Source: a virus. Taken from it: a stretch of 64,000 bases of DNA. The stretch spans positions 1 through 64,000 of the IMG/VR virus record IMGVR_UViG_3300050506_000187. One strand, given 5' to 3'. The notes under the pieces were generated by a model. It had not been told where the DNA came from and searched no databases. It was given only the letters and a program-made list of their open reading frames with translations. The position numbers and the translations under genes were made by a program. This document shows, piece by piece, positions 19,919 through 58,391 of this stretch. How positions within the stretch are numbered: position 1 is the first letter of the stretch; each line of letters starts with the position of its first letter.

Positions 19919-19931
19919 CCTGACTATTAGG
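19919..19931 (+). promoter_or_regulatory. rightward start-proximal motif, instance 1 (CCTGACTATTAGG)
   Basis: Followed by a GTG at 19933. Confidence 0.45.
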
Positions 19932-19932
19932 C

Positions 19933-20082
19933 GTGAAGAAGTCAACACACGAGGACAAGCTTTTCGAAAGGGCACCGGTTTCGGTGCGAAAACTGCACAA
20001 ATTGGCCCGGCAGGAGCGCCGCGAGCGCCGCCGCAAGGAATGGGCGGAAAAGGTCTCCGGTATAGAAAGGACCGGACCTTGA
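19933..20082 (+). CDS. 49-aa highly basic small ORF
   Basis: Below the ORF-track size cutoff. GTG lies 1 nt after the motif. Sequence VKKSTHEDKLFERAP...[11 protein letters not shown]... Confidence 0.3.
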   Translation: MKKSTHEDKLFERAPVSVRKLHKLARQERRERRRKEWAEKVSGIERTGP

Positions 20083-20510
20083 AACCTACGGTATTTCCGG
20101 ACAAGGTCTGCAAAGCTTGCGGGCGACCATTCAATCGCCGAACCACCAAAACAGGAAGATTGGAATCCTTTGAGGATTGTTCCGTTCGTAAATTTTGTTC
20201 TCGAATATGCTGGAAAAAGTTTACTCGTGGAGAGAACCACCCGCTCTTTGTTCCGGGAGGAACTCCAAGAGCCGACGGATATTTTCGAACAACGGCTAAT
20301 GGCAAGAGAGAATATGTTCATCGGTTAGTAGCCGCAGAAATCTTAGGAAGGCCCCTTCAATCTTCAGAGCATGTCCATCACATCGATGAGAGTCCGGGGC
20401 TTAACGTAAAAGAAAATCTTCAAATCTCGACCAATTCAGAACATCGAAAGATTCATGCCGCCCGAGACCCCCGTTCCGAAATCGGAAGATTCGTATGCAA
20501 AGAGCGTTAA
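20040..20510 (+). CDS. HNH endonuclease
   Basis: [48 protein letters not shown], plus an N-terminal CKACG...CSRIC zinc motif. Confidence 0.75.
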
Positions 20511-21493
20511 TATTTGGGCTGACAGGCCAAGACGGGAGTTATCTCGCAGAGTTGCTTCTCTCTAAGGGATACGAAGTTCACGGCACGGTCCGCCGGTCCT
20601 CCACAAACAATCTCAGCCGGATCGAACACTTGCCCGCACTCAATTTGCACTACGCAGATTTGAGCGATTCGAACTCGCTCGACCGAGTCGTCGGCCAAAC
20701 AGCACCGCATGAAATTTACAATTTGGCGGCTCAGAGTCATGTTGCGGTTTCATTCGCGAATCCCGAATACACAGCCAATTGCGATGCGACTGGCACCATT
20801 CGAATACTTGAGTCGGTCCGAGCCCATGCGCCGCAAGCGCGATTTTACCAAGCCTCGTCAAGCGAGATGTTTGGCCTCGTTCAAGAAATACCGCAGCGTG
20901 AAACAACGCCGTTCCATCCTCGAAGCCCATATGGTTGCTCAAAAGTCTTTTCGTATTGGGCCGTTCGAAATTATCGGGAGAGTTATGGTTTACACGCCAG
21001 CAACGGAATATTATTCAATCACGAATCGCCTCGACGTGGACTCAACTTCGTTACTCGCAAGATCACTCGCGCTGTGGCTCGCATTAAGTTCGGCTTGCAA
21101 GACAAAGTTAAACTCGGCAATCTCGATGCGCAGCGTGATTGGGGCTTCGCCGGTGATTATGTCGATGCCATGTGGCGAATGTTGCAACAGCCGTCGCCGG
21201 ACGATTACGTCATCGCGACCGGCCAGACGTGGACCGTTCGTGATTTCGCCCGCACAGCTTTCGCATACGTTGGGCTCGACTGGAACGAGTATGTGGAAAC
21301 TGATGCCGCGTTATTGCGCCCTGCCGAAGTTGATTTACTTATCGGCGATGCGACCAAAGCTAAGACCAAGCTTGGATGGAGTCCGCGAGTTGGCTTTGAC
21401 GGACTTGTTCGAATGATGGTTGACGCCGACATCGACGACATCAAAAGTTTTTGCACGAATTGCGGCCAGACCGCTTTCAAACTCTCAACATGA
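20495..21493 (+). CDS. gmd: GDP-mannose 4,6-dehydratase
   Basis: [28 protein letters not shown] (YxxxK), [28 protein letters not shown]. Confidence 0.92.
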
Positions 21494-22086
21494 ACGATTT
21501 AGTTCAATCAGATACTCTCGCGAAAGCACAAAGCCTCGAACTCGACATTGAGAACATTTTCCTGTTGTATGCGACATTCTGCGGCGATGTTGAACGCACC
21601 GCACACGCATGCAATCGCACACCTTCAGAAATCATTTCGTTAGCTTCGGTCCATGGATGGAATGAAAAGCTTCGTGGCATTATTGAATTAAAACGATCCG
21701 GTAAGCCCGGTGACGTCGAACGCGCCATCAATCGCGCTCTCAATTTTGTTCAAGCGCATAAGTTTCGCCTTTTTCTTGAGCGGGTCCTCCGCGATATTTA
21801 TGCGCTTGATTCAGCGTATTTGATGGAATTGCTTGTTGTTGGCTCCGTGGACAAGGACGGTAACAAATCACACAAACTCAGCACGCGCGCTTTCGCAGAC
21901 CTTGCCGCAGCGTTAGAGAAATGCCAAGCGATGACTTATCTTGCGCTTGGTGATAGCGCAGGCGAGCGCAAGGGACGCGAAGAAGCCGCCGACAGTGAAG
22001 CCAGCGGCGTGTCGTTGCATTCGAAGCTTGCGGCACTCATGGCGAATAACAGTCCGAGTGCTGCGCTGGCGGATTCGCAGAAATGA
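21490..22086 (+). CDS. hypothetical protein (HTH-like N-terminus)
   Basis: ATG at 21490 forms an ATGA overlap with the gmd stop. [20 protein letters not shown] is vaguely similar to small-terminase/DNA-binding proteins. Confidence 0.55.
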
Positions 22087-22435
22087 GAAACAAGTGTGTC
22101 ATATTAGCACACACTGTGTCACAATGGCACAAAGCGAAAATCTGGCGAGAGATCGCGGGTTCGTTTGGATATACTCCCCGGCGCGTATAGGCACATCGTA
22201 TCTATATCGTGTATGGAGCGCAATACAACGAACCGTAAAGCCCAACGCCGGAATGGCTTGACGCCGTTCCGCCGAGCGGGCCATACGTCGCCCGGACCGG
22301 CCCCCGGGTCACCCTCGGTTTTCGCAAATTTGAGAAATGGGCTGGGGGTTTTGCGGTTTTGAATCCTTCGCTTAGGCACGATTTCGAGATGAAAAAATTT
22401 GGATCGAAGGCTTGACATGTGTGCTACATTAAGCC

Positions 22436-25020: not shown

Positions 25021-25049
25021 AATAAAGTGGGGAGCGTCTCCGTCTCCGG

Positions 25050-25061
25050 TGACTATTTTGT
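25050..25061 (+). promoter_or_regulatory. rightward start-proximal motif, instance 2 (TGACTATTTTGT)
   Basis: Followed by a GTG at 25062. Confidence 0.4.
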
Positions 25062-25400
25062 GTGAGTAGTCCGACATCGCCGACCCAAGTAGTCCGCGCG
25101 CAACCTGCGCCCGGAGATACCGACAATAATTTGCTTCGCAAAGTTGCGGCTCTGCTGGCAACCGGCGCGGGGCTTGCAGGTCTCGATGTTATTACCGACA
25201 ACGCAAAGCACTCCGGCAACTGGGGGATTTTTCACGCGCTGCAAGATTCCGTAGTTTCCGCAATCGAGTTTCAACCATACGCGAACGCAACCGGTTCCCT
25301 CGACGGCCAAACAATCAAAGCCGGGGACCGGGTCTATGGCTTTTTCAAATCGATTACGCTTGTGTCCGGTTCCGTCATTGCGTATCGAGTCGCATTATAA
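25062..25400 (+). CDS. hypothetical protein
   Basis: 112-aa ORF. Confidence 0.55.
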   Translation: MSSPTSPTQVVRAQPAPGDTDNNLLRKVAALLATGAGLAGLDVITDNAKHSGNWGIFHALQDSVVSAIEFQPYANATGSLDGQTIKAGDRVYGFFKSITLVSGSVIAYRVAL

Positions 25401-27046: not shown

Positions 27047-27237
27047 AATTTCCGGTTGTTGCGCCAGAGCAGGTAAGCTTTTTTCTTCCAGCAGTTGCAT
27101 TCCGACTCATCTACTGGGGGAGTATATTTCGGATGTCGATTCGGCAAACACGATTTTGATTTTTGAAATTTGCAATCCGGATGGTGAGAACCAAATCGGA
27201 TTGCATCGCTTAGAACGAAATTCAGTTCAGCATTCAT
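27043..27237 (-). CDS. hypothetical Cys/His-rich small protein
   Basis: 64-aa ORF, convergent with the protease gene. Confidence 0.45.
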   Translation of the reverse strand: MNAELNFVLSDAIRFGSHHPDCKFQKSKSCLPNRHPKYTPPVDESECNCWKKKAYLLWRNNRKF

Positions 27238-27545
27238 GGGATTCTCAACGATTGTAACGCCGCGATGTGCGTATCGATGGCGAGATTGAGCGTAGTCTTG
27301 GCTTCGACTTCAGTTCGGAATACGCGCTCCGGGGGCCACGACATCGAAAATTCGTATTCGGCTTTGCGGCACGTAATAAAAGTTTCTCCATTCTTCATCG
27401 ATACTCCTTCGAATATACGTTGCTGAACGCTCGCGCTCGGGGTTCGATCCGTGCTCTTTCCATTCGGATTGAAAAAATAAATCCAAACCTTCGTCCCGAT
27501 TTTCGGAAGTTTTTTAATGTCAATCATGGACTCAATATAGCACAT
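27234..27545 (-). CDS. hypothetical protein
   Basis: ATG at 27545; the ORF extends to a TTG at 27554. Confidence 0.5.
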   Translation of the reverse strand: MCYIESMIDIKKLPKIGTKVWIYFFNPNGKSTDRTPSASVQQRIFEGVSMKNGETFITCRKAEYEFSMSWPPERVFRTEVEAKTTLNLAIDTHIAALQSLRIP

Positions 27546-27564
27546 CGGTTCCAACTGTCAAGTG

Positions 27565-27580
27565 CCTGACTTTAAAATGT
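27565..27580 (+). promoter_or_regulatory. rightward start-proximal motif, variant instance 3 (CCTGACTTTAAAATGT)
   Basis: Followed by an ATG at 27581. Confidence 0.35.
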
Positions 27581-27802
27581 ATGGCTACATTATCAGCAGC
27601 GAATAGCAAAGAGATTCAGGCAGTCATTGACTACATCGTGAAGTCGAACGCCCCGCAGCTTCCTTTCGACGCAACCGCAATCGAGCGACTCGCGCGGGTT
27701 GCCGCGTCGGTCGGTTTTGAGGGCGCAGGCAACTTCAAAGAGGATGCCAAAAATAGTCCAATCACGACCCTGCTTGCTCTTGCGAAGTTTTTGGGGACTT
27801 AA
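27581..27802 (+). CDS. hypothetical protein
   Basis: 73-aa ORF. Confidence 0.5.
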   Translation: MATLSAANSKEIQAVIDYIVKSNAPQLPFDATAIERLARVAASVGFEGAGNFKEDAKNSPITTLLALAKFLGT

Positions 27803-27836
27803 TAGTCTTCATTAGGACAACTTAAATAGTTTTCGT

Positions 27837-27865
27837 CCGCCGGAAAGTGTTAGACTTTTCGGCGG
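27837..27865 (+). terminator. strong hairpin (11-bp stem, 7-nt loop), terminator-like
   Basis: CCGCCGGAAAG-tgttaga-CTTTTCGGCGG followed by ATTGTGTT. The U-tract is imperfect. Confidence 0.45.
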
Positions 27866-27884
27866 ATTGTGTTATGGTGATAGC

Positions 27885-29322: not shown

Positions 29323-30180
29323 ATGAATGTGTTTTCGTATCTCCGAGTTTCCGGTCTTGGCCAAGTGGACAAGGACGGTCCAGTTCGTCAACGGTTGAGT
29401 ATCAAAGCTTTCGCAGACCGATTTAATTTGATCATCCTGCAAGAGTTTTTTGATGAGGGAGTATCCGGAACGGTCGAGTGTATGGAGAGACCCGGGTTCG
29501 CTGATATGATTACGAAGGTAATCATTTCCCAGAATACTCCGTTCCCGGTTGAGGCAATCGTCGTCGAATGCATGGACCGGCTCGCGCGCGATTTGATGAT
29601 TTCCGAAATGCTGCTGAAGACGTGTCGCGATAATCAAGTTAAAGTATTCTGTTCGGTCGACAGTGGGCTCGTGGATGTGGCCTCGGAAGCAGATCAAAAC
29701 CGAACCATGCTCAGACAAATTTTGGCAATCGTCGCGCAGTGGGACAAAACGAATACCGTGAAAAAATTACTAAGTGCGCGTTTGCGGGCGCGCGCCGAAG
29801 GTCGTCGTTGCGAAGGCAGCAAACCGTATGGACATTTTCCCTCTGAGCAAATAGTGTTGGCGCGGATGAAAACGTTGCATCGCGAGATGTCGCTCTCAGA
29901 GTTAGCGTTTACACTCAACACGGAAGGATTTAGAAATCGGGCTGGTCGTCAGTGGACGAAAGCGTCAGTGTATTCAATATTAACCGGTCAGTCATTGGCT
30001 GCAACCAGAAAAGAAAGAAAAAACAATGCGAGGCGCATACATGCAATATCTCAGGGCGAAGGGCTCACCCCCGGCGCTGAAATCTGCGGACCCGGTGGAA
30101 CAAGCGCATGCGTTGCGCAAGGAGCAAGCGGAATTGCGCAGAGCGCGAATCCTCAATCGGGCAGAGCCGTCAATGCGTAA
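29323..30180 (+). CDS. serine recombinase (resolvase/invertase catalytic domain plus recombinase-domain segment)
   Basis: FSYLRVSGLGQ, MDRLARD, LNTEGFRNRAGRQWTKASVYSIL. Confidence 0.8.
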   Translation: MNVFSYLRVSGLGQVDKDGPVRQRLSIKAFADRFNLIILQEFFDEGVSGTVECMERPGFADMITKVIISQNTPFPVEAIVVECMDRLARDLMISEMLLKTCRDNQVKVFCSVDSGLVDVASEADQNRTMLRQILAIVAQWDKTNTVKKLLSARLRARAEGRRCEGSKPYGHFPSEQIVLARMKTLHREMSLSELAFTLNTEGFRNRAGRQWTKASVYSILTGQSLAATRKERKNNARRIHAISQGEGLTPGAEICGPGGTSACVAQGASGIAQSANPQSGRAVNA

Positions 30181-30198
30181 CGGAAAATAATTTTTTTA

Positions 30199-30289
30199 GT
30201 CGGGTTAGCTCAAAGGTAGAGCCCCGCGCCGTAGTAGGCTTTTCACCGAAACGGGGCGGAGGTTGATGGTTCGAGTCCTTCACCCGACT
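30199..30289 (+). ncRNA. tRNA-like element 1 (91 nt, no drawable anticodon arm)
   Basis: Acceptor stem GTCGGGT/ACCCGAC (perfect). D arm GCTC-AAAGGTA-GAGC. T arm GATGG-TTCGAGT-CCTTC. The 42-nt central segment has no 5-bp/7-nt stem-loop. Confidence 0.35.
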
Positions 30290-30298
30290 TCTTCTATT

Positions 30299-30373
30299 TG
30301 CAGGGTGGCGCAGTGGCAGCGCGGCGCGCTCATAACGCGCAAGTCGTCGGTTCGATTCCGGCCCCTGCACCCA
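30299..30373 (+). tRNA. tRNA with CAT anticodon (Met or Ile2), CCA encoded
   Basis: Hand-folded cloverleaf: TGCAGGG/CCCTGCA acceptor stem; GCGC-AGTGGCA-GCGC D arm; GCGCG-CTCATAA-CGCGC anticodon arm; AAGTC variable loop; GTCGG-TTCGATT-CCGGC T arm; then C-CCA. Confidence 0.85.
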
Positions 30374-30517: not shown

Positions 30518-30533
30518 CCTGACTATTAGGGGA
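30518..30533 (+). promoter_or_regulatory. rightward start-proximal motif, instance 4 (CCTGACTATTAGGGGA)
   Basis: Followed immediately by a TTG at 30534. Confidence 0.45.
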
Positions 30534-30857
30534 TTGAAGATACTCACGACTTTTGTCCCGGAATCCGCCCCGATTCTCAAAACATGGGCTGCAAGCTGGC
30601 GGGGTCATGGCTGGACCCCCGGATTGCTGGCCCCCAAGGAGATTCAAAAACATCGCAAATTACGGGCTGCCGTCGCCGCCCGGCGCGGTCGTCTTTTTTG
30701 CAGTGCTTACCTAATCAATTTTGGTCTTCGCCGGGCTCCGCGTTCGCTCCGGACCTTCATTCGAAAATTCGGGTCCCCGGGGTGGGATACCGCAAAACTA
30801 GTCCTTTTTCCCGCCGGGACTACTTCAGAGCAGATCGAAAACTGTGGACATCGCTGA
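30534..30857 (+). CDS. hypothetical protein (small terminase candidate by position only)
   Basis: 107-aa ORF immediately upstream of, and overlapping, the large terminase gene. Confidence 0.45.
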   Translation: MKILTTFVPESAPILKTWAASWRGHGWTPGLLAPKEIQKHRKLRAAVAARRGRLFCSAYLINFGLRRAPRSLRTFIRKFGSPGWDTAKLVLFPAGTTSEQIENCGHR

Positions 30858-32784
30858 ACGAACAAAACTTTCGGCCATCGTCGCAAAGCACGTCCAATCC
30901 GCTGAACCGTGGATTGCCGCGCAAGCGATTTCTGACTTTGCGCAAATCAATGTCCGGTATACCCGCGATTCGCGGCCAGAAAAACTGAACGAGATTTTGC
31001 AGAGTTACTTACATGGACTATTGAATAATAACGGCATGTCGGAAGCCGCGAGTATACTTTGGACTCCGACGCAATTCACCGCTGGGCCCAATTCGGTTAA
31101 ATCGGTATGGGAACTTTTCGAGTCCTCATCTGCGGGTTTGATTATGGGAGCCGCTGCTCTCGGAAAATCTTTTTCGATGGGAGTCCGGCTTATGCTGGAA
31201 TGGATCAGAGACCCGGAGTATACGGGCATTCGCGTCATCGGCCCAAGCGAAGACCATCTTGAGCAAAATCTTTTTTCGCATCTCGTAAGTTTGCACGCAC
31301 AAGCGAGCCTACCCATGCCCGGAGAAGTCGGAGATTTATTCATCGGCACCAATCGTCGAAATCAAACGGCGGCGATTCGCGGCATCGTTGTTCCGAAGGG
31401 CAATAACAAAAAGGCAGGACGCCTGCAAGGCGGACACCGAAAGCCTCGCCCGAAACCCCATCCGATTTTCGGACCGCTGACGCGGATGTTTATTTTCATC
31501 GACGAAATCGAAAACGTTCCGGCAGGTATTTGGCACGATGTCGGCAACGTGCTCAGCGAAGTCGGTCCTGACGGAGGATTCAAAATTTTCGGCGCGTATA
31601 ACCCGACGAATCTAGGAGATGAAGTCGCAAAACAGGCGGAACCTCCTTTCGGATGGCCGAATGTTGACGTCAATATTCATTATAAATGGAAGTCTACTCG
31701 CGGATGGGATGTAATCCGTCTCGACGCCGAAAAATGTGAAAACGTAATCGCCGGAAAAGTGATATATCCCGGGCTGCAAACGCGCGAAGGGCTTGCGAAG
31801 ATTGCTCTGTCGTCCGGTGGAACGCAATCTGCGGGATATTACACCATGGGTCGGGGAATGTATCCGCAGCAGGGCATGCAAGCGACATTGATACCCTCCG
31901 GCATGCTGGAAAAAAGTCGCGCGAAATTTATTTGGTATGATGACAAGCAAGTTCGCGTAGGCGGATGCGATTTAGCGCTTGAAGGCGGGGACGATGCGGT
32001 ATATGCGTTAGGAAAATGGGGGCTCGCAACCGGTATTCAGTATCCGCCGACGCTTGAAAAACCGGATGGATTCAAGATCATGTTCAAAGATGAAAAGGGA
32101 CGAGTTCGGGCGCGGCACGGATTGCAAATCGAGAGCCTGATGATTATTCCGAAGGGCGATACCGTCGCAATCAAAGACCGTATCATCAAATTTAACAAGA
32201 ACGCAGGTGTCCGCCCAGAGTTTTTTGCGTGTGATCGAACCGGTGTAGGGGCCGGTGCTGCCGATTTGATACGCCATGAGTGGTCTCCTTCGATTCACGA
32301 CATAAATTATTCCTCCGGGGCCTCCGATTCTCGAATTATGTCGGAGCACAGCAAGACATGCGCCGACGAATATGATCGGCTTGCAACCGAAATTTGGTTC
32401 CGGCTCCGGTTCTGGCTTGAATTTGGGTTCGCGCTTTTCGATCCGGGCATGGATATGAGCAAGGTCGGACAGCAATTAACGCAACGACGGCAGCTTAGCT
32501 CCGGTTCGAAGGCCAAAATTGAGTCCAAACGGGATTACGAATCGCGCGGATTCGCGTCTCCGAATGAAGCGGACGCGATTACGCTGCTCGTTCACGCGGC
32601 ACATCGCGGTTCCGGCGTGACCCCAAGCATGGACGGCGGGTCTCAAATACCGGAAAACCCGTGGGAAGATGATTGGCCGCACTCGGGCATGCAGGGCGGA
32701 GTAAAAATTGATTTATCAAACCGTTCTGACTGGCTGGACGACCGCCCCGAATCAGCGGAGCCGGGAGAATTTGCGATTTTATGA
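30844..32784 (+). CDS. terL: terminase large subunit
   Basis: Walker A-like GAAALGKS, Walker B MFIFIDEIE, and a C-terminal nuclease-type GCDLALEGGDDAVYALG. Confidence 0.85.
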   Translation: MDIAERTKLSAIVAKHVQSAEPWIAAQAISDFAQINVRYTRDSRPEKLNEILQSYLHGLLNNNGMSEAASILWTPTQFTAGPNSVKSVWELFESSSAGLIMGAAALGKSFSMGVRLMLEWIRDPEYTGIRVIGPSEDHLEQNLFSHLVSLHAQASLPMPGEVGDLFIGTNRRNQTAAIRGIVVPKGNNKKAGRLQGGHRKPRPKPHPIFGPLTRMFIFIDEIENVPAGIWHDVGNVLSEVGPDGGFKIFGAYNPTNLGDEVAKQAEPPFGWPNVDVNIHYKWKSTRGWDVIRLDAEKCENVIAGKVIYPGLQTREGLAKIALSSGGTQSAGYYTMGRGMYPQQGMQATLIPSGMLEKSRAKFIWYDDKQVRVGGCDLALEGGDDAVYALGKWGLATGIQYPPTLEKPDGFKIMFKDEKGRVRARHGLQIESLMIIPKGDTVAIKDRIIKFNKNAGVRPEFFACDRTGVGAGAADLIRHEWSPSIHDINYSSGASDSRIMSEHSKTCADEYDRLATEIWFRLRFWLEFGFALFDPGMDMSKVGQQLTQRRQLSSGSKAKIESKRDYESRGFASPNEADAITLLVHAAHRGSGVTPSMDGGSQIPENPWEDDWPHSGMQGGVKIDLSNRSDWLDDRPESAEPGEFAIL

Positions 32785-33353
32785 AATCGATTAACCCAAA
32801 TTTGTATCCGCACGACGGAAGATTTTTCATCGATTCCGACGGCGCACGAATTTCCGGCGATACGTGGGCCGGAGTGATTCGCAGAGTTGAAGGATACCGC
32901 CGCCGACAGGGCCGACCGGTTGGCGACGTCGCCGCCGAAGTCACGGCTCAAGCGTGCCAGCGTAATCCGGTTATCTGCACCGAAGATAACGCAGCGTATA
33001 AACAGGAATTGCGAAAATCGTCGCTCAAATCTCGGGTGCTCGCGTGGTTTTCCGCGTTTATACACCAAGTGCAGAGTAGCCCGCCGACTTTTTCGTCGGA
33101 GAATGACGCACGCAACCGCGCAAACGTGTGCGCCGGGTGTCCACTCAATACCGCGCTGCCGGATGGATGCTCGTCATGCAAGGCGGCACTAAACGAAATG
33201 CGAAAATCGGTCATAGGAGGCCGTTTTCAAGACCAGAGAATCCATGCGTGCAACGCGCTTAGCGAAGATTTGAATACGGTCGTCTGGATTGAACAAACTA
33301 CGGTCGAAAATCCGGCACTTCCCGGACATTGTTGGCGAAAACGAACGGTATGA
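32781..33353 (+). CDS. hypothetical Cys-rich protein
   Basis: 190-aa ORF with an ATGA overlap to terL. Confidence 0.6.
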   Translation: MKSINPNLYPHDGRFFIDSDGARISGDTWAGVIRRVEGYRRRQGRPVGDVAAEVTAQACQRNPVICTEDNAAYKQELRKSSLKSRVLAWFSAFIHQVQSSPPTFSSENDARNRANVCAGCPLNTALPDGCSSCKAALNEMRKSVIGGRFQDQRIHACNALSEDLNTVVWIEQTTVENPALPGHCWRKRTV

Positions 33354-33589
33354 GCTTATTTTTTCGGATTTTTGTTTCGTGGTTCGTGTTACGGTGGGCA
33401 AAACTACGGGGATACCGAGTTTTGGCGAATTGTAACGAACAACTTGACCGTTTAGCATCGTGCGGGGTGTGCCCATTTTATAAAAATGGACTATGCGAGA
33501 TTTGTGGGTGTCTTGTCATAGCTAAAATCACTCTAACTACCGAAAAATGCCCTAAAAAAAGGTGGGGCCGGATATTCGAAAAGCGCTGA
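33350..33589 (+). CDS. small membrane-anchored Cys-rich protein
   Basis: ATGA overlap. CGVCPFYKNGLCEICGCLVIAKITLTTEKCPKKRW. Confidence 0.5.
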   Translation: MSLFFRIFVSWFVLRWAKLRGYRVLANCNEQLDRLASCGVCPFYKNGLCEICGCLVIAKITLTTEKCPKKRWGRIFEKR

Positions 33590-33600
33590 CTATTAGGGGA
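33586..33600 (+). promoter_or_regulatory. rightward start-proximal motif, instance 5 (CTGACTATTAGGGGA)
   Basis: 8 nt upstream of the portal ATG at 33609. Confidence 0.45.
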
Positions 33601-41730: not shown

Positions 41731-41908
41731 TGATTTCGGTCGGACGAGTGACCACTTTATGAGCCCTACGCCCGGCTGGCTCCCCGGGAAGTGCCTAAGC
41801 GCTGTTTGGCCACAGCGAGAGAAAATCAAAGTCTTTGAAGCGGACAGGTTGCTTCACCGAATTTGAGACCCGGACAACGGTCTCTCGTTAGTTAAACGCC
41901 CAAACATT

Positions 41909-43207: not shown

Positions 43208-43247
43208 CCGTCCAAACTCTTAACATAGGGGGAGAGTTTGACACAAA

Positions 43248-43279
43248 GGGCGGGTTGGGAAACCAGCCCGCCCTTTTTT
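43248..43279 (+). terminator. rho-independent terminator
   Basis: GGGCGGGTTGG-gaaa-CCAGCCCGCCC followed by TTTTTT. Confidence 0.75.
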
Positions 43280-45981: not shown

Positions 45982-46172
45982 TTACGTTAATAACCAACAA
46001 GCCCTTTGTGGGGTATATCGGAGCGACCGTGGGATTTTTCTCCGGTTTGCTGACTATTTTAAAAGTATTAACCCCTATTCTCGGTTTTGCGGGTGCTCTC
46101 TTCGGCGCGGCTGCTGGATTGATTACCATGTTACTGAAATTTCGAGAGTGGAAAGAAAAGAACAGACAATGA
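45978..46172 (+). CDS. 64-aa two-helix membrane protein (holin-like)
   Basis: ATGA overlaps on both sides. Hydrophobic GYIGATVGFFSGLLTIL and ILGFAGALFGAAAGLITMLL, with a charged C-terminus. Confidence 0.45.
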   Translation: MITLITNKPFVGYIGATVGFFSGLLTILKVLTPILGFAGALFGAAAGLITMLLKFREWKEKNRQ

Positions 46173-46738
46173 AAAAATTATTCGCCCTTGTTTCCCTGAT
46201 TGCGCTGACTGGTTGCGCGTATTTTCCGCTTCGGCCCGGTATCGGAACGATTACCGCAAATGGGGCCTATGTCCGGCAATCTCAAAATCCTCAGCAAGCC
46301 AGCACTCAAGAATTTGAAAAAACCACGGAATTTATTCCGACGAATGGCGTCGGTGTTGTTCGGACGCACGAACACGGCAAGACTTATATAGGCGCGGCTC
46401 AGAAGGATACCGCCCGAGAAGTCGGAGCGAAACTCGCTTCTCTGTCGATTGTGGTCTGGGTCGGACTCGCGCTTGCGATTTTCGGCGCGGCCAGTTTTGT
46501 GTATCCTCCGATCAAAATTCTCGTCGGCGGGAGCGTGACTACCAGTGCTGTTTTGACTGCGTCGGGAGTCGCGCTGATTGCGTTGCCGTCACTACTCGTC
46601 GGCCATGAGTTACTAATTCTTTCTGTTGGGCTAGGCGCTGCCGGTCTTTACTGGTTCGCGCACCGGCACGGCGGGCTTGCCGGAGCGTTGGCGGCGGCGA
46701 AAGCGGACCTTGAGAAACTCAATCCTCCGAAGCAATAA
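46169..46738 (+). CDS. lipoprotein with C-terminal transmembrane segments
   Basis: Lipobox MKKLFALVSLIALTGC. Three hydrophobic segments in the C-terminal half. Confidence 0.6.
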   Translation: MKKLFALVSLIALTGCAYFPLRPGIGTITANGAYVRQSQNPQQASTQEFEKTTEFIPTNGVGVVRTHEHGKTYIGAAQKDTAREVGAKLASLSIVVWVGLALAIFGAASFVYPPIKILVGGSVTTSAVLTASGVALIALPSLLVGHELLILSVGLGAAGLYWFAHRHGGLAGALAAAKADLEKLNPPKQ

Positions 46739-48014: not shown

Positions 48015-48029
48015 CCTGACTATTATAAG
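48015..48029 (+). promoter_or_regulatory. rightward start-proximal motif, instance 6 (CCTGACTATTATAAG)
   Basis: ATG at 48031. Confidence 0.45.
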
Positions 48030-48030
48030 T

Positions 48031-48396
48031 ATGAAAGAACTCGATCTTGAGATAACGGATAAGTATGGACCAATCGGCACGGTTCCAGCTTCGGATTCCG
48101 GCAGTGCAAAATATTATCCTACGCTTCACTTGGAAGGTTCAGAGTTAGACTTTCCGGAGGATGGGACGGTCACTTTCGAGTTTAGCGTTAAGCGCCGGAC
48201 GGAATCAAAAAATTCGGATGGCTCGGAGCGATGCGAATACGATCTTGAGATTCGAAAACTGAAATCGGTTAAAGCTGCCCCCGGCGAGAAAGACGAGCAA
48301 CCGTATAAGCGTGACACCAGCGCAGAGGATGCGCTTGACCGGTTGATGAAGGAAAGAGAAGCCGAAGGTTCTGACGATGAGGGAGATGAATATTGA
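48031..48396 (+). CDS. acidic structural-module protein
   Basis: ATG at 48031 chosen because of the motif; the ORF track starts at 47980. Confidence 0.55.
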   Translation: MKELDLEITDKYGPIGTVPASDSGSAKYYPTLHLEGSELDFPEDGTVTFEFSVKRRTESKNSDGSERCEYDLEIRKLKSVKAAPGEKDEQPYKRDTSAEDALDRLMKEREAEGSDDEGDEY

Positions 48397-49401: not shown

Positions 49402-50007
49402 ATGCCTTACGCTGATTCTAAAAAAAGAAAAGCGTATCAGGCCGCATATCGAATACGCAACAAAGAAAAGCTTAGAACCAAAAAGAAAATTTGGGTTAAA
49501 AAGAATTGGAAGACTTTATACGCTAAGATGCGGGAGTATCGCCGATATAACATCGATAAAATTCGATGCATTTCCAGACAGTGGGCAGCGCGTCAGCCGA
49601 AGGAGGTAATGGCTCGAAAGATGAGAATATGGAGAGCCGATAATCTAGAACATGTCCGAAATACTCGAAGAATATGGGAACGTAGAGCATACAAAACTCG
49701 ATTAGAATTTCGGTTAGGAAAAAATTTGCGAGGTAGAATAAAAGATGCTCTAAAACGTAAATATAATAAATTCGGAACCTTGTATGAATTAATCGGATGT
49801 TCAATTCCCGAATTTAAAGAACATATTTCGAAAAAATTTCTTCCGGGCATGACGTGGAAAAATCACGGTCTGTGGCATCTGGATCATATCCTACCGTGCG
49901 CTTTTTTCGACCTGAGCCAGCCGGACCAACAAAGGAAATGTTTTCATTTCTCTAATCAACAGCCGTTGTGGAAACTTGATAACCTTGAGAAGGGGGCAAA
50001 GGTTTAA
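49402..50007 (+). CDS. HNH endonuclease
   Basis: Basic N-terminus. GLWHLDHILPCAFF...NQQPLWKLDNLEKG. Confidence 0.7.
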   Translation: MPYADSKKRKAYQAAYRIRNKEKLRTKKKIWVKKNWKTLYAKMREYRRYNIDKIRCISRQWAARQPKEVMARKMRIWRADNLEHVRNTRRIWERRAYKTRLEFRLGKNLRGRIKDALKRKYNKFGTLYELIGCSIPEFKEHISKKFLPGMTWKNHGLWHLDHILPCAFFDLSQPDQQRKCFHFSNQQPLWKLDNLEKGAKV

Positions 50008-53722: not shown

Positions 53723-53730
53723 TTTTTGGA

Positions 53731-53743
53731 TGACTATTTAGAG
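53731..53743 (+). promoter_or_regulatory. rightward start-proximal motif, instance 7 (TGACTATTTAGAG)
   Basis: ATG at 53751. Confidence 0.4.
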
Positions 53744-53750
53744 TAATTCT

Positions 53751-54575
53751 ATGAGCCTGAAAGCCACAAATTTATATATCTCGATGTCGCAAATCCCGGC
53801 GACGTTCAAAGGAACGCCGCAGGATTTCGCCGCCGCGATGGTGTCGCGCATGAAGATTCTGTCTCCGAACGGGGCCAATTTTATCTTCATCGGTGACGTT
53901 GAACCGACGAGCAATGTAGGCCCATGGTTGCGCGGAGGGACGAAATGGTATGTCTGGGATGATACCATCAAACGATACGTTCCCCTCGATATATCCGACT
54001 CAGAAACGAAATGGTTTTGGATTGGAAGTTCAACTCCGACCAGCACTCCTCCGCAAGTCTGGTTGCGGACGACCAAAGACGCGACGGACCAAGACCCGAG
54101 TCATGGAGACCCGGTGGGGTGGTATGTATTCGATGGAACTAACTGGGTTGCGTTCAACAGCGTCGTCATGTCTGGTCCGACCGCGAGCCGACCGGTTAAT
54201 CCGGTTGAGTTTCAGCAATTCTACGATTCCGACATCGGCGTGCTAATTTGGTTCGAGCGAGGCGAATGGCGAACAGTCGCCGGAGTGCCGGGAGACGTCA
54301 AGTTTGTTGCCTACGAACAATTGAGCGATGCGTTGAGATTCAATCCCGGATGGGAAGTTTTCGGAAGCACGAATCAGTCGTGGCGCGGTCGGCTCATCGT
54401 TCAAGCGGCCAAAGATGCCGGGGCATCACCGGTTACGGTTTTGAGCGTTGGTCCGGGAATCACACCTCGCGGTGCATTCGAGACCTTCGGCGAGGATTCC
54501 GGCATCAAAGTAGATAATACGTCTACGTTGAAATACCCCGGAACTATCGGTCTTTGGACTCTCGTTAAGAACTAA
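53751..54575 (+). CDS. tail fibre-like protein (collar-domain-like segment)
   Basis: 274 aa. VAGVPGDVKFVAYEQL...NPGWEVFG resembles tail-collar motifs. Confidence 0.5.
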   Translation: MSLKATNLYISMSQIPATFKGTPQDFAAAMVSRMKILSPNGANFIFIGDVEPTSNVGPWLRGGTKWYVWDDTIKRYVPLDISDSETKWFWIGSSTPTSTPPQVWLRTTKDATDQDPSHGDPVGWYVFDGTNWVAFNSVVMSGPTASRPVNPVEFQQFYDSDIGVLIWFERGEWRTVAGVPGDVKFVAYEQLSDALRFNPGWEVFGSTNQSWRGRLIVQAAKDAGASPVTVLSVGPGITPRGAFETFGEDSGIKVDNTSTLKYPGTIGLWTLVKN

Positions 54576-54582
54576 AAACGGG

Positions 54583-54595
54583 TGACTATTAACGG
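54583..54595 (+). promoter_or_regulatory. rightward start-proximal motif, instance 8 (TGACTATTAACGG)
   Basis: ATG at 54596. Confidence 0.4.
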
Positions 54596-55045
54596 ATGGG
54601 ATACTCAGTTCGACGATTGCGAATGAAAGAATTTGGCCCGGTCATGGCAGAGATTTGGAAGACTTGGGGAGACACAGTGTCATACCCCGGCGGTCCGATT
54701 TCGCCTTTATTTCTGATTGAGTCTTTTCAGAAACTCATCGACAACGGGACTGGCCGGGCATACGGACTTTTTTCGCAGGATTATCCTGCCGGAATATTGC
54801 TGGGAATGTTGGTTCCGGACATGATGACGGGACGGTTGCAGGGCGTGGAATATCTTTGGGCGGTTGATCCGGCTCATCGCGGAATTCCATCGTTGCAGCT
54901 ACTCAGACGGTTCGAGCAGGATTGCGCGGACTCTCATTGCGAGGGCATCGTTGCCGGGTTCCGGGACAGATCGAATGACCTTGAAAAGATTTACGACCGT
55001 CGGGGATATGTTCCTTACGGAAAATCTTTTTTCAAGGCGCTATAA
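54596..55045 (+). CDS. GNAT-family acetyltransferase-like protein
   Basis: VEYLWAVDPAHRGIPSLQLLRRFEQDCADSHCEGIV and YDRRGYVPYG. Confidence 0.6.
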   Translation: MGYSVRRLRMKEFGPVMAEIWKTWGDTVSYPGGPISPLFLIESFQKLIDNGTGRAYGLFSQDYPAGILLGMLVPDMMTGRLQGVEYLWAVDPAHRGIPSLQLLRRFEQDCADSHCEGIVAGFRDRSNDLEKIYDRRGYVPYGKSFFKAL

Positions 55046-56044: not shown

Positions 56045-56683
56045 ATGCCGGTCAATACAATTAATGGATGGACGAGCATGGGGCTGAGCCCTTCATATTC
56101 AGTTCTAGCGTCGATTTTGCATAGTGCTGGCGGGACACCGACGCAAGCCGCAACTCCGGCCCCGGCCTCGACGAGCACATCGGCTCCGAAAAATATTCTG
56201 CCCGGGGTAACGCCGATGCCCAAAAATCCCTATGGCGGCGGATTTGCCGGAGGCGCGACGTATGGCACAGGTTCACTTATTCCGAATGGCCGGTCTCCAA
56301 TTAATTCTGCGTTGAACCCGCAGGAAGCTTATTCCCAGTATTTGCAAAACCGTGCAATTTTGGAAGGTTCGACACCGCAACAGAGCGCGTATAATATCGC
56401 GGTGTATCAACATCAGCTTTTGAATGACGCGGACCCCAGCGGAATTTGGAGAAATCCGGACGCGGGTCAGATTGGTCGGCCTCAAGATGCTTTTTTGCAG
56501 CAGCAGCAATTTCAATCTGATCTTGCAACGCGCATGTTTAATACTGCGTCACCTTATTCTTATGCTCAAGGTGTCGCTCCGGCGAACGCTCCGGCTCCTC
56601 CGCCTCGTAGCACCGGATATTCATCCGGGTGGACTCCCGCAGGTGGTGGGTTCGGATTTGGCGGCGGTGGATTCGGTTACTAA
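56045..56683 (+). CDS. Gly/Pro/Gln-rich virion protein candidate
   Basis: 212-aa ORF. Confidence 0.55.
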   Translation: MPVNTINGWTSMGLSPSYSVLASILHSAGGTPTQAATPAPASTSTSAPKNILPGVTPMPKNPYGGGFAGGATYGTGSLIPNGRSPINSALNPQEAYSQYLQNRAILEGSTPQQSAYNIAVYQHQLLNDADPSGIWRNPDAGQIGRPQDAFLQQQQFQSDLATRMFNTASPYSYAQGVAPANAPAPPPRSTGYSSGWTPAGGGFGFGGGGFGY

Positions 56684-56691
56684 GGAAATTT

Positions 56692-56964
56692 ATGGCATAC
56701 GGCGAAACAATCGGCGCTCTCGATCACATCGCGAATCATCTCAATGCGGCTCCGCCTAATCCGGCGCTTGCGCGGATAACGGACCACATGAACCGGACTC
56801 AAATCGCGATGGATAAAAACCATCAATCGATTATCGGAGCATTGCAGCATCCGAATTATAACGAGGACCATGTCAACGAATTGCTTGAGGCGCAACAGCG
56901 GCACAAGCACAACATGGAATACCTGAAAAAACTTCACGGTCATCTCAGCGGCGGAAAAGCGTAA
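56692..56964 (+). CDS. hypothetical His-rich protein
   Basis: Internal ATG at 56692 (MAYGETIGALDHIANHL...). Confidence 0.5.
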   Translation: MAYGETIGALDHIANHLNAAPPNPALARITDHMNRTQIAMDKNHQSIIGALQHPNYNEDHVNELLEAQQRHKHNMEYLKKLHGHLSGGKA

Positions 56965-56972
56965 AAAATTTT

Positions 56973-58367
56973 ATGCCCGGATTTGGTTCTGAATCTCAAA
57001 CTCCTTTGTCGGCGGGGCTATCGGCTCAGCCTCTTGTTACTCCAATCACACCGGCAGCGACGCCGGACGCGGTTGCTAAGCTAACAGAAGCTTTTCGTTC
57101 CGGTCTGATTACGTCTCAAGACATTATCGACCGAATCGGACCGCTCGGCGCAAGCAAACGAAAAGCAGAAATTCAACTCGCGAACGAAGTAACTCAACCG
57201 GCATCGGTTGATGCACGATTACAGGCGTATAAAGCGGCCTCGGAACAAGCGCGATTGCAGCAGTTGCAGGGAGCCGCCGGAATCGGACTCGTCGAACCGG
57301 AATCCAATCTCAAGGCGTCTCAAATCGCCGCAGCGCAATCGCTGGTTGAGCCTCAGCGGGAGCTAACGGCACAACAATTGTCCCTTGCGGCGAAGTATAT
57401 GTATCCGCAAGCGGTGCTGGGTCTCGTTCAGCAACGACTCAAGCCGGTCAAGACCGTTGAGCGTATCAATCCGGACGGAACAAAATTTTCTCAGGATTAC
57501 AACGACATCGGCGAAGATATTACCCCGGGGTCTCCGGCGCACAAGTTTTTGACGGATACGGCGAAGAATGTTTTCAACATGTCGCCCGGGACGGCGGCGC
57601 TCGTTCCTCCGGCTTCGGCGGCTACTCCGGATGTCACCCCGGGAGTCACCCCGGATGTGACCCCGAAAAATGAGGTGGTGCCTGCGACTGCGCCGACTAT
57701 TCCCGTAGACAATACTGGATACACTCCGGGTATGGGAATTCAAACCGGGTTGTCAAAGGATTACCAAACTCCTGCCGAAATCGGCTCAGACTTGCGAAAA
57801 CAGGATGCTTACTCTCTTTGGGACAAACAGCAGGCCCCCGCAAACAGTTTCAAAACGAGCGCGCAGGAAATCCTCAACATTCCAGAGAAAGACCAGCTTT
57901 CCGGAAAGGCCAAAATGAACGCGCTTGATTTGAGTCTCGCGGAAAACATTATCAAAATGTATGATCCCGGCGCAGCGATTCGAGAATTCAAATGGGATAA
58001 ACTTGCCGAAGGTCAGCCGTATACAGAAAAACTTCGTAACTTCAAAGCGGAAGTTCAGCGGACCGGAACGTTGACTCCGGAAAGCCGGAAACGCCTGATT
58101 GCGCTTGGGTATGATACCCTAGCGGCGTCCGATGCTGCGGCGTTGCCCCACATTCAACTTGCGGCAACCCGGGCTCAGGCTACCGGTAAACCCTTGGAAT
58201 CGGTCCTCAATCCTCGGGAATTGAGTTTGCTGCGCAATGGACCGGTAAAACCTCCTGCCGGAGTCGCTTCCGGCGCAGCGCAACTACCGCCGGGCGGGAA
58301 ACTCGTCAATATCCCCGGTCGAGGGACTGGGATGCTGTATCCCGGCGGAATTTTCATACCCCAATAA
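56973..58367 (+). CDS. internal virion protein candidate
   Basis: 464-aa ORF containing a (TPxV)n micro-repeat. Confidence 0.6.
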   Translation: MPGFGSESQTPLSAGLSAQPLVTPITPAATPDAVAKLTEAFRSGLITSQDIIDRIGPLGASKRKAEIQLANEVTQPASVDARLQAYKAASEQARLQQLQGAAGIGLVEPESNLKASQIAAAQSLVEPQRELTAQQLSLAAKYMYPQAVLGLVQQRLKPVKTVERINPDGTKFSQDYNDIGEDITPGSPAHKFLTDTAKNVFNMSPGTAALVPPASAATPDVTPGVTPDVTPKNEVVPATAPTIPVDNTGYTPGMGIQTGLSKDYQTPAEIGSDLRKQDAYSLWDKQQAPANSFKTSAQEILNIPEKDQLSGKAKMNALDLSLAENIIKMYDPGAAIREFKWDKLAEGQPYTEKLRNFKAEVQRTGTLTPESRKRLIALGYDTLAASDAAALPHIQLAATRAQATGKPLESVLNPRELSLLRNGPVKPPAGVASGAAQLPPGGKLVNIPGRGTGMLYPGGIFIPQ

Positions 58368-58376
58368 CTCGGTTTC

Positions 58377-58391
58377 CCTGACTATTAGGGG
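58377..58391 (+). promoter_or_regulatory. rightward start-proximal motif, instance 9 (CCTGACTATTAGGGG)
   Basis: Abuts the ATG at 58392. Confidence 0.45.

Follow-up and report, generated by a model that had tools for sequence, protein, structure and literature searches.

A repeated -10-like motif at right-arm gene starts of a 71.6-kb phage genome: candidate promoters without a -35 box, with a phage sigma factor as their likely reader

The window analysed here comprises 64,000 nucleotides of an uncultured phage (IMG/VR record IMGVR_UViG_3300050506_000187, positions 1 to 64,000), for which a complete genome of 71.6 kb was recovered. A short motif, TGACTATT, recurs in front of genes of its right arm. 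The features discussed below are the following, where index positions are counted from the first T of the motif (index 0).

352..2386, minus strand: DNA polymerase A gene (polA), with its own leaderless host-type promoter, TTAGCA-N18-TATTGT-aatcaag-ATG
6129..6428, minus strand: 99-aa protein with a sigma region-4-like helix-turn-helix
6864..6875, minus strand: weak variant CCTGACTGTTTA, 6 nt 5′ of the ATG of 6666-6857 (first T to ATG, 16 nt)
19919..19934, plus strand: CCTGACTATTAGGCGT, heading the right arm; the GTG of a 49-aa basic ORF (19933-20082) begins with the index-12 G, and an HNH-like ORF and gmd come next
25048..25063, plus strand: GGTGACTATTTTGTGT; the GTG start codon of 25062-25400 begins with the index-12 G
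27565..27580, plus strand: variant site CCTGACTTTAAAATGT, 2 nt 5′ of the ATG of p73 (27581-27802)
30518..30533, plus strand: CCTGACTATTAGGGGA, adjoining the TTG start of p107 (30534-30857)
33585..33600, plus strand: GCTGACTATTAGGGGA, 22 nt 5′ of the ATG of a 713-aa portal-like gene
41749..41759, plus strand: tentative divergent site TGACCACTTTA, about 150 nt 5′ of a 432-aa capsid-like gene
43245..43276, plus strand: strong intrinsic terminator, 3′ of the capsid-like gene
46049..46064, plus strand: exact TGACTATT copy within ORFs 45978-46172 and 45923-46738; index 12 is A, not G
48015..48030, plus strand: CCTGACTATTATAAGT, 2 nt 5′ of the ATG of p121 (48031-48396)
53729..53744, plus strand: GATGACTATTTAGAGT; index-12 G 8 nt 5′ of the ATG of 53751-54575
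54581..54596, plus strand: GGTGACTATTAACGGA; index-12 G 1 nt 5′ of the ATG at 54596
58377..58392, plus strand: CCTGACTATTAGGGGA; index-12 G 1 nt 5′ of the ATG of a 2206-aa giant protein, whose gene runs from 58392 past the window end
Genome position 65157, beyond the window: eleventh site, 5′ of the last plus-strand gene

The motif is a real repeated element. Nine exact copies occur in the window (19921, 25050, 30520, 33587, 46051, 48017, 53731, 54583 and 58379), against 0.86 ± 1.0 expected, and none of 100 shuffles contained nine or more; the variant TGACTTTA lies at 27567. The complete genome holds 10 exact copies, and eight of them are noncoding throughout, compared with 5.6% of the right arm (binomial P ~4e-9). 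The first-pass annotation had listed nine sites as plus-strand and intergenic. Each of these carries the motif or a variant, and all nine exact copies in the window are on the plus strand; however, the copy at 46051, which lies within ORFs, had been overlooked. In the 33587 copy, the TGA terminates a small conserved ORF (33329-33589). The 46051 copy is probably the one chance copy expected, although it is possibly an internal promoter for 46148-46738. Four copies had also been credited with a shared 16-mer, but an exact CCTGACTATTAGGGGA occurs at just two of them, 30518 and 58377, with one mismatch at 33585 and two at 19919, which reads AGGCGT.

The full consensus is (C/G)(C/G)TGACTATTWnnnGW, and conservation is confined to these ~16 nt. 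The G located 12 nt past the first T is invariant (10 of 10 sites), independently of the distance to the start codon, and only 3 of the 11 sites contain a G-run. The start codon lies 12-22 nt past the first T, a slightly wider range than the 12-21 nt first given, and the distance is 12-14 nt in seven of the nine originally listed sites, as reported; the end of GACTAT is 5-7 nt from the start codon at seven motif sites. GACTAT matches TATAAT at three of six positions. As had been noted before, no -35 box accompanies the motif: the summed TTGACA match over 11 sites was 30, compared with 26.2 ± 3.0 for positions taken at random. The 11 sites of this genome also lack a TGn extension at the proper place.

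The left-arm genes, in turn, are preceded by TTGACA-N16-18-TGnTAnnnT promoters (typically N17) that end 5-8 nt 5′ of the ATG. Only 11 of 78 genes carry a Shine-Dalgarno-like 4-mer (6 expected), and, together with the proximity of these promoters to the ATG, this suggests that leaderless expression is the rule in this genome. The motif sites share the geometry of the ordinary left-arm promoters relative to start codons, and the earlier proposal of leaderless or nearly leaderless mRNAs stands, as the motif geometry implies a start at or next to the G preceding the start codon. The two promoter classes occupy different arms. In the late region, host-type promoters were no more frequent than expected (21 against 18.3 ± 3.3, none with TG); the only motif-like site of the early arm, at 6864..6875, scored 9.2 bits with the PWM, compared with 14.5-20.3 for the other sites. 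Additionally, the variant site at 27565..27580 shares bases with the -35 box of a sigma-70-type promoter (27561 to 27534) that runs divergently on the minus strand.

The proposal that the motif heads transcription units of the right arm is borne out, in that it behaves as a promoter-like element; the 30518 site, for instance, heads the packaging module (646-aa protein, 30844-32784). The terminator placed near 43248 was confirmed at 43245-43276, and the right arm has just one further strong terminator, at 27835-27867. The motif sites have no terminators ahead of them, and would thus act as internal reinforcing promoters.

Relatives of this phage carry a drifted motif, nACTrTT, at orthologous genes. 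In one of them (L023), six copies of GGTAACTATCT were found, all on the plus strand, and among 393 genes of the phage family there were 18 cases of ACT[AG]TT ending 4-15 nt 5′ of a start codon, where ~1.9 would be expected. The portal-like gene, p107, p73 and p121 have orthologues that are preceded by the motif: most relatives have ACTrTT at the position matching the 33585 site, nACTrTT lies 5-6 nt 5′ of the conserved GTG start of p107 in L013, L014 and L020, and the p121 orthologue of L003 carries GGTAACTATTaaatgacATG. In the p73 orthologues, the place of the 27565 site is taken by TTGACn-N17-nACTnyT; similarly, TTGACG-N17-nACTnCT is located ~180 nt 5′ of the counterpart of the 432-aa capsid-like gene. 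TTGACn-N16-18-nACTnyT was counted 29 times in relatives (4.4 expected), 26 of them on the gene strand and 22 with a 17-nt spacer, and 26 times (5.6 expected) in polA-anchored loci, which come partly from the same contigs as the set of 29. The nACTnT hexamer often lies exactly 17 bp 3′ of the TTGACn -35 box, early arms included, which points to a sigma-70-family holoenzyme. Furthermore, of 38 non-redundant sites taken from relatives, 32 have a pyrimidine at index 11 and 29 have a purine at index 12. This pyrimidine-purine step at a fixed distance 3′ of the hexamer has as its purine, at the window sites, the invariant G.

A search of the complete genome recovered a sigma-70-family protein outside the window and, among the scanned ORFs of at least 230 aa, no detectable single-subunit RNA polymerase. 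The polA gene is the first of an operon that continues beyond the window with a zinc-ribbon ORF, primase, a 240-aa sigma and a RuvC-like gene. The sigma gene lies 5-6 kb past the window end on the minus strand, translationally coupled and 3′ of polA and primase. Its product scores 57 bits with TIGR02937 (cut-off 42.9), 35.8 bits with Pfam region 4 and 23.2 bits with region 2; the AlphaFold model contains sigma-2 and sigma-4 helical domains, and the top PDB fold matches are all sigma factors. The same operon position is occupied by a sigma in every family genome with the region available and in 43 of 80 polA-anchored loci. At the residue matching E. coli R584 this sigma has G, which would suit promoters lacking a -35 box; yet the L023 sigma retains R at this residue, although L023 is without -35 boxes too.

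Taken together, we favour, with a probability of about 0.6, the reading that the motif is the core of phage-specific promoters without a -35 box, and that host RNA polymerase with the phage 240-aa sigma is their likeliest reader. These promoters would serve the rightward accessory, packaging, head, tail and giant-protein genes. GACTAT would occupy the -10 position, with its A and T as the equivalents of -11 and -7, and we infer that transcription starts most likely at the invariant G or, 1-2 nt further on, at the start codon; leaders would then measure 0-2 nt at seven sites and 8-10 nt at three. The enzyme would be the host multisubunit RNA polymerase and its specificity factor most likely the phage's own sigma, a product of the early polA-primase operon, which would be driven by promoters of the ordinary host type, in an early-to-late cascade that may resemble those of phiEco32 gp36, T4 gp55 or SPO1 gp28/gp34. 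The motif sites are best read as middle or late promoters of the phiEco32 or T4 late type, with a presumed timing. The link between sigma and motif is circumstantial, and the three-of-six match of GACTAT to TATAAT and the missing terminators 5′ of the motif sites also weigh against this reading. Three readers had been suggested at first pass, namely the protein at 6129-6428, a polymerase outside the window and the unseen part of the giant ORF; none fits as worded, the likeliest being the full two-domain sigma beyond the window. The 99-aa protein, which has a homologue at the same position in a relative, is not a complete sigma and may be an accessory regulator.

Host sigma A holoenzyme could instead read the motif, unaided or together with an activator or appropriator of the phage, for example the 99-aa protein; the 240-aa sigma would then have some other target. 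The hexamer retains both key -10 positions, A-11 and T-7, and the TTGACn pairing of relatives, early arms too, means that sigma A could read at least those hybrid promoters; in addition, a sigma-70-like TRERIRQI recognition helix in some distant family sigmas suggests that host and phage -35 specificities may overlap. We consider this unlikely for the sites of this genome, however: with neither -35 box nor placed TGn at any of 11, they would be very poor substrates, yet they head structural genes. The C, the T and the following T are also far more strictly conserved than their counterparts in the sigma A-type -10 boxes of this genome, the two classes are separated by arm, and inspection by eye alone revealed no other conserved motif 5′ of genes for the conserved phage sigma. 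The phage sigma is accordingly inferred as reader in preference to sigma A.

It is improbable that the motif acts in RNA, either as a Shine-Dalgarno-independent translation signal or as a processing site that makes leaderless mRNAs from long late transcripts. Its strand specificity and intergenic position just 5′ of start codons at non-overlapping gene junctions would suit such a role, as would the lack of Shine-Dalgarno sequences at most genes. AGGGG could pair with the anti-Shine-Dalgarno sequence, but it occurs only at 30518, 33585 and 58377 (19919 has AGGCG), and two of these adjoin the start codon with a spacing of 0-1 nt. A CCCT/AGGG stem forms at only two sites, so no structure is conserved; the invariant G and pyrimidine-purine step are fixed relative to the motif, not the start codon, and the 17-bp TTGACn pairing is a DNA-level promoter feature.

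The likeness to T7-group promoters (T7, T3 and SP6) seen at first pass is present in the letters: the core ACTAT(T)AGGG resembles ACTATAGGGAGA, and both are strand-specific and repeated before gene blocks. In an ungapped alignment, 11 of 16 positions agree with the consensus of T7 and T3, a level that 0.25% of random 16-mers attain. A variant particular to each relative is what promoter-polymerase co-evolution would produce, and a single-subunit or non-canonical polymerase might be hidden among the many ORFs without detectable homologues, for example in the giant protein. However, the lack of a visible RNA polymerase gene reported for the window was also seen in the complete genome as far as it was scanned: Pfam and PDB searches detected no such domain in any scanned ORF of at least 230 aa, a scope that leaves aside 49402-50007 (201 aa), 56045-56683 (212 aa), L036:18090-18767 (225 aa) and other ORFs below ~200 aa. 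The giant protein profile had no PDB sequence match at E ≤ 1, although structures of both the N4 virion polymerase and the crAss-like phage polymerase are available in that database; a virion polymerase, as known from N4 and crAss-like phages, would moreover be expected to act on early and not on late genes. A T7-type promoter is therefore disfavoured and very improbable, with no detectable polymerase, a ~16-nt conserved span (23 in T7-group promoters) that lacks a specificity region at -17 to -5 and has nothing at the equivalents of -17 to -9, an invariant G 3 nt (4 positions) 3′ of the T7-register +1, and a hexamer paired with TTGACn in relatives.

The preferred reading, a phage sigma on host core polymerase, has its closest parallel in phiEco32 gp36 and the Salmonella phage 7-11 sigma, which recognise a single ~9-12-bp motif (TAATGTATA in phiEco32) without a -35 box (PMC4331800). 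In both cases, a small sigma-70-family factor is encoded in a unit under host-type promoters, and the proposed redirection of host core polymerase to one short -10 motif, located 5′ of middle and late genes on one strand and drifted in relatives, would be shared. In contrast, our sigma showed no detectable sequence relationship (tblastn against 50,697 GenBank phages gave no matches), its consensus is TGACTATTWnnnG, the promoter adjoins the start codon with leaderless mRNAs implied, relatives also join the hexamer to a TTGACn box, and we identified no anti-sigma gene.

T4 late promoters (TATAAATA) are likewise 8-bp -10 elements without a -35 box. They recur ahead of many late genes, where host core polymerase recognises them together with gp55, gp33 and gp45. 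The -10-only element 5′ of late genes and the proposed phage sigma-like reader are common to both systems. Unlike the protein here, gp55 corresponds to the sigma-2-like part only and needs the sliding clamp, and T4 late mRNAs possess leaders and Shine-Dalgarno sites.

For the GMD protein, the best matches (66-67%) come from Verrucomicrobiota, Planctomycetota, Gemmatimonadota and Acidobacteriota, and point to no single host phylum. A leaderless promoter-to-start-codon architecture is described for Actinobacteria, Deinococcus-Thermus and their phages (e.g. mycobacteria, PMC4633059). The present genome resembles them in its -10 hexamer ~6-8 nt 5′ of ATG or GTG, the lack of Shine-Dalgarno sequences and the translationally coupled downstream genes, and differs in that a second, phage-specific -10 class shares this geometry.

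The repeated element that precedes rightward genes in this phage is a real, non-random and conserved regulatory element. In the 64-kb window, TGACTATT occurs nine times, always on the plus strand, against 0.86 copies expected from shuffles, and none of 100 shuffles reached nine. The complete genome contains ten exact copies, 10/10 on the plus strand, and eight of them are fully noncoding in a right arm of which 5.6% is noncoding (P about 4e-9); the strand bias reported in the first-pass annotation extends to the whole genome. Gene calling by codon usage separated a minus-strand left arm from a plus-strand right arm, and all 11 sites lie on the plus strand of the right arm, with one weak variant only in the early arm.

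Motif sites and associated genes (L035 and L036 are pieces of the phage's own genome that reach past the window)
1-19456, minus strand, left arm with the early genes
6129-6428, minus strand, 99-aa sigma region-4-like protein
19919, plus strand, motif site with two mismatches to the 16-mer CCTGACTATTAGGGGA
27567, plus strand, motif variant TGACTTTA
27581-27802, plus strand, p73, a 73-aa conserved protein
30518, plus strand, motif site, exact 16-mer
30534-30857, plus strand, p107, head of the packaging module
33585, plus strand, motif site with one mismatch to the 16-mer
46051, plus strand, motif copy inside ORFs
48031-48396, plus strand, p121
58377, plus strand, motif site, exact 16-mer
58392-64000 and beyond (L035:11420-18040), plus strand, giant protein
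65157, outside the window, plus strand, eleventh site CTGACTATTAAaggagattttATG, before the last plus-strand gene
L036:14363-15085, early minus-strand operon, 240-aa sigma-70-family protein

Nine intergenic plus-strand sites before gene starts had been described previously. These do lie in short gaps upstream of plus-strand genes, with the first T of the motif (T0, index 0) 12-14 nt from the start codon at seven of them and 20-22 nt at the remaining ones, but the copy at 46051 had been missed. This copy is probably the approximately one expected by chance. A scan of IMG/VR with the exact 16-mer returned a single match, L001, which is unrelated and attributed to chance.

Conservation was analyzed in 33 IMG/VR loci retrieved with a 458-aa protein (36331-37707; 38-58% identity), in which the 713-aa portal-like protein is 57-79% identical. 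The exact TGACTATT is not conserved as such in these relatives, which led us to analyze drifted forms, and each relative was found to have its own version of the motif. L023 carries six copies of GGTAACTATCT, all on the plus strand and with an ATG 5-15 nt downstream in 4/6, while GGAGACT(A/G/T)TT was observed in L009 and L014, GGCACT(A/G)TT in L010 and L016, and GTAACT(G/A)TT in L003, L013 and L020. Among 393 genes of 26 relatives, ACT[AG]TT ends 4-15 nt before the called start in 18 cases (about 1.9 expected), and the counts drop to background beyond 16 nt. The motif precedes orthologues of the portal-like gene, p107 (with a conserved GTG/TTG start), p73 and p121. Directly before the portal-like gene, the small ORF 33329-33589 ends in PKKRWGRIFEKR and a stop codon, and its C-terminus is conserved in relatives (KKKWxPIWxRKR...). 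In the window, the TGA of the motif doubles as this stop codon, which means that coding confounds some of the conservation seen there.

The logo of ten sites reads (C/G)(C/G) T0 G1 A2 C3 T4 A5 T6 T7 W8 n n n G12 W13, with high information content only at index -2 to +8 and 12-13, and less than 0.8 bit further upstream. G12 is invariant in the window whether the start codon lies 0, 1, 2, 8 or 10 nt downstream, and therefore belongs to the motif and not to the start codon. With the hexamer taken as G1-T6 (GACTAT), the equivalents of A at -11 and T at -7 are both kept, as in -10 promoters of the sigma-70 family, and three of six positions match TATAAT. At seven sites, the hexamer ends 5-7 nt short of the start codon, a geometry shared by the ordinary promoters of this phage. 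The window sites lack a -35 box: their TTGACA matches add up to 30, and random positions give 26.2 +/- 3.0. No terminators were found upstream of the sites, and the right arm has two strong ones only (27835-27867 and 43245-43276). The motif as a -35 element was ruled out because conserved N-termini (M-A/P-D in the portal-like protein, ATGGCnACA in p73, GTG/TTG-AAR in p107) place the start codons 5-15 nt downstream.

The relatives fix the register of the hexamer. TTGACn-N16-18-nACTnyT occurs 29 times in them against 4.4 expected, with 26 on the gene strand and 22 with a spacer of exactly 17 nt; many of these pairs lie 5-9 nt before an ATG, and some are located in early arms. The pairing recurs in sigma-positive loci anchored on the DNA polymerase A gene (polA), some of them from the same contigs (26 versus 5.6 expected). 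A -35/-10 spacing of 17 +/- 1 bp is the signature of a sigma-70-family holoenzyme, which sets the hexamer register and disfavors a single-subunit polymerase. Of 38 non-redundant sites in the relatives, 32 have a pyrimidine at index 11 and 29 have a purine at index 12. Pyrimidine-purine at -1/+1 is the usual preference of bacterial RNA polymerase.

The capsid-like gene (432 aa) has a long upstream region of about 150-180 nt, where L020, L027, L031, L013, L018 and L033 show a conserved TTGACG-N17-nACTnCT, located some 180 nt ahead of the gene, and a small conserved hairpin near the ATG; in the window (41731-41908), a divergent TGACCACTTTA is found at 41749. Judging from these sequences, the region may be a 5' UTR subject to regulation or processing.

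Textbook promoters of the type TTGACA/TTAGCA-N16-18-TGnTAnnnT were identified upstream of many left-arm genes and at a few accessory genes of the right arm (22436, 22977, 29104 and, on the minus strand, 27527), with the -10 hexamer ending 5-8 nt before the ATG. Shine-Dalgarno-like 4-mers at -18 to -5 precede 11 of 78 genes (6 expected), and most other genes abut or overlap their upstream neighbor. Promoters ending so near the ATG, the scarcity of Shine-Dalgarno 4-mers and the abutting genes together suggest that leaderless mRNAs serve for the expression of first genes, with translational coupling for those further along. Matches to host-type promoters within 39.4-59.4 kb, the late region, number 21, no excess over shuffles (18.3 +/- 3.3), and none of them has TG. 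Host-type promoters cluster in the early arm; the two classes show segregation by arm. One accessory locus (27234-27867 and 29323-30180) has a divergent arrangement: a minus-strand TTGACA-16-TATATT of a leaderless gene of about 97 aa (27234-27527) faces the plus-strand motif variant of p73, downstream of which lies the arm's strongest terminator, and a serine recombinase with a Resolvase domain is encoded nearby. From its layout, this region could be a regulatory or lysogeny switch.

The complete genome was recovered by exact-protein look-ups in a Logan assembly and JGI 3300006914, and the pieces were joined into a 71,594-nt circle. Beyond the window, DNA polymerase A is followed in the early minus-strand operon by a zinc-ribbon ORF of 61 aa, a primase/helicase-like protein of 728 aa (Walker A motif GIGKT) and the 240-aa sigma, and after these come genes for a RuvC-like protein, a phosphoesterase and a NUDIX protein. 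The sigma gene is translationally coupled into this polA operon, whose promoter is host-type. Its product matches TIGR02937 (NCBIfam) along the full sequence at 57 bits, above the cut-off of 42.9, and, in Pfam, Sigma70_r4 (35.8 bits), with Sigma70_r2 just below cut-off (23.2 bits). The AlphaFold model comprises a four-helix sigma-2 domain (13-114), a disordered linker and a sigma-4 domain (171-235), and all top matches in a PDB fold search were sigma factors. The gene follows the primase in every family genome with the region available (L121, L123, L124 to L133 and the P0005 contig, a relative), and it is present in 43 of 80 polA-anchored IMG/VR loci. Roughly 150 genomes of the family were located by way of polA. 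By tblastn, no homologue was found among 50,697 GenBank phage records at E <= 0.01.

Within the polA relatives (L134-L213), those with at least 44% polA identity carry the sigma and TTGACA-type promoters, and the group at 32-39% has neither; the hosts of the latter probably follow another promoter grammar. A comparison of sigma presence with motif enrichment was discarded as confounded, since the sigma-less relatives also have no TTGACA-type promoters.

Based on sequence features, the likeliest explanation of the motif is a phage-specific class of -35-less, -10-type promoters that serve right-arm genes and are fused to start codons, so that the mRNAs would be leaderless or nearly so. The most likely reader of the motif is the host core polymerase carrying the sigma that the phage encodes. 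This assignment is inferred from the segregation by arm, the poor fit to sigma A, the fact that no other conserved promoter-like motif the sigma could serve was seen on inspection by eye, and the precedent of phiEco32 and 7-11, in which a phage sigma reads one motif of about 9-12 bp without a -35 box (TAATGTATA in phiEco32; PMC4331800). A -35-less, TGn-less hexamer with half of the TATAAT positions would be a poor sigma A substrate. In the proposed sequence of events, the early arm would be transcribed from host-type leaderless promoters, the phage sigma would be made, and late genes would then be expressed from the -35-less motif, with transcription probably starting at the invariant G12. A start of the sigma-70 type would be expected at a purine after a pyrimidine, 6-8 nt past the hexamer. 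With the phiEco32 gp36, T4 gp55 and SPO1 gp28/34 type of system, this phage shares a phage-encoded sigma-70-family protein and a single -10 motif without a -35 box, located before late genes and absent from the host-type early unit. The tblastn search of the GenBank phages gave no sequence match to gp36, gp55 or gp28, so the kinship is functional and not that of a protein subfamily.

The hybrid TTGACn promoters of the relatives, some of them in early arms, leave room for reading by host sigma A at those sites. One -10 element could also be shared in succession, first by host sigma A through the -35 box of the relatives' hybrids and then by the phage sigma; in this phage, loss of the -35 box would then have gone hand in hand with the replacement of R by G in the recognition helix of sigma-4. 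At the equivalent of E. coli R584, the sigma of this phage has G and nearly all relatives have R, and some distant family sigmas contain the canonical TRERIRQI helix. The G as an explanation of the -35 loss fits this phage, but L023 is a counter-example, keeping R yet having no -35 boxes. In sigma region 2.4, KPYIRGE accompanies CACT and K(V/A/K)xLRG accompanies GACT, a suggestive correspondence with the base at index 1 that covers two clades only, which leaves the covariation tests underpowered. The 99-aa protein consists of little beyond a sigma region-4-like helix-turn-helix and has a 109-aa counterpart at the same position in the P0005 contig. Speculatively, it might act as a -35-binding repressor or beta-flap competitor aiding the switch from -35-dependent promoters.

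A further alternative is that the motif is the promoter of an unrecognized phage polymerase, hidden in the giant virion protein or in ORFans and initiating as T7 does, with the sigma serving another purpose; we regard this as very improbable. The likeness to T7-group promoters pointed out in the first-pass annotation is real, with 11/16 positions in agreement with the consensus of T7 and T3 (0.25% of random 16-mers do this well), but the T7 polymerase reading drawn from it is unsupported. The alignment places T7 +1 at index 8, which puts the invariant G12 a further 3 nt (4 positions) downstream. Only three of the 11 sites (30518, 33585 and 58377) have a G-run after TATTA, and nothing is conserved in the -17 to -5 specificity region of a T7-type promoter of about 23 bp. 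No RNA polymerase domain, including RNA_pol (PF00940), was detected by Pfam scans or precomputed hits in the scanned ORFs of at least 230 aa of the complete genome, a scope that leaves out 49402-50007 (201 aa), 56045-56683 (212 aa), L036:18090-18767 (225 aa) and other ORFs under about 200 aa. A polymerase beyond the window, suggested as the reader of the motif, was not detected within this scope, and the rest of the genome yielded the sigma gene. A polymerase in the then unseen part of the giant ORF likewise found no sequence-level support: the recognizable parts of this 2206-aa protein are a GNAT domain (around residues 1540-1615) and a well-conserved C-terminal DUF7178 region only, and the protein, alone or as a five-sequence profile, gave no match in sequence searches of the PDB. 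Homologues of the giant protein in relatives are 2056-2094 aa when full-length, with two further partial ones. The T7 resemblance is treated as coincidental, and the T7-like look of a short motif is no evidence of a T7-like polymerase.

An RNA-level role is likewise improbable; the fixed G12 and the -35 pairing, both DNA-level features, argue against it. As a Shine-Dalgarno site, the motif fails on spacing: AGGGG is present at three sites only (30518, 33585 and 58377; AGGCG at 19919) and abuts the start codon at two, and a position 5-10 nt upstream of the start, as required, is found only at 33587 and 65157. An RNA hairpin was rejected because the CCCT/AGGG stem forms in two sites only. Just upstream of the packaging-module motif, a gap of 340 nt contains two tRNA genes (30198-30373), the first of 94 nt with no anticodon assigned (Rfam tRNA, 46 bits) and the second a tRNA-Met (CAT). 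The latter was rejected as a leaderless-specific initiator owing to elongator-like features, namely a G1:C72 pair and no GGG/CCC anticodon stem.

Searches for known relatives returned nothing among 50,697 GenBank phage records by megablast of 24 kb or tblastn of the portal-like protein, and a portal profile found no prophage relative in 185,579 prokaryote species genomes. The large right-arm proteins had almost no matches in Pfam and PHROG. The analysis provides a testable transcription map for an uncharacterized family of soil and rhizosphere phages of about 70 kb; the interest of the finding lies in this family and in the compact fusion of promoter and start codon. If confirmed, this would be a new sigma-promoter pair with a compact specificity of 13-16 bp, possibly useful as an orthogonal expression part, in which one short element sets both transcription start and translation start.

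Other genes in the window were also annotated. At 12344-12949, the N-terminal domain of the dATP/dGTP diphosphohydrolase family (MazZ-like, PF18909) may point to a role in altering the nucleotide pool or modifying DNA bases; PurZ-like genes were not detected among the proteins scanned with general domain searches. Between the first motif site and the GDP-mannose 4,6-dehydratase gene (gmd), a 156-aa ORF (20040-20510) with the HNH-like motif HVHHID...N...HRKIH overlaps both neighboring ORFs. The dehydratase (20495-21493; Pfam E = 2e-124) was discarded as a host marker, its best matches (66-67%) being scattered over several phyla. A second NAD-dependent epimerase/dehydratase is encoded within the head-gene block (39358-40311), and the domain content of these two sugar-nucleotide enzymes suggests metabolism for virion or host-surface modification.
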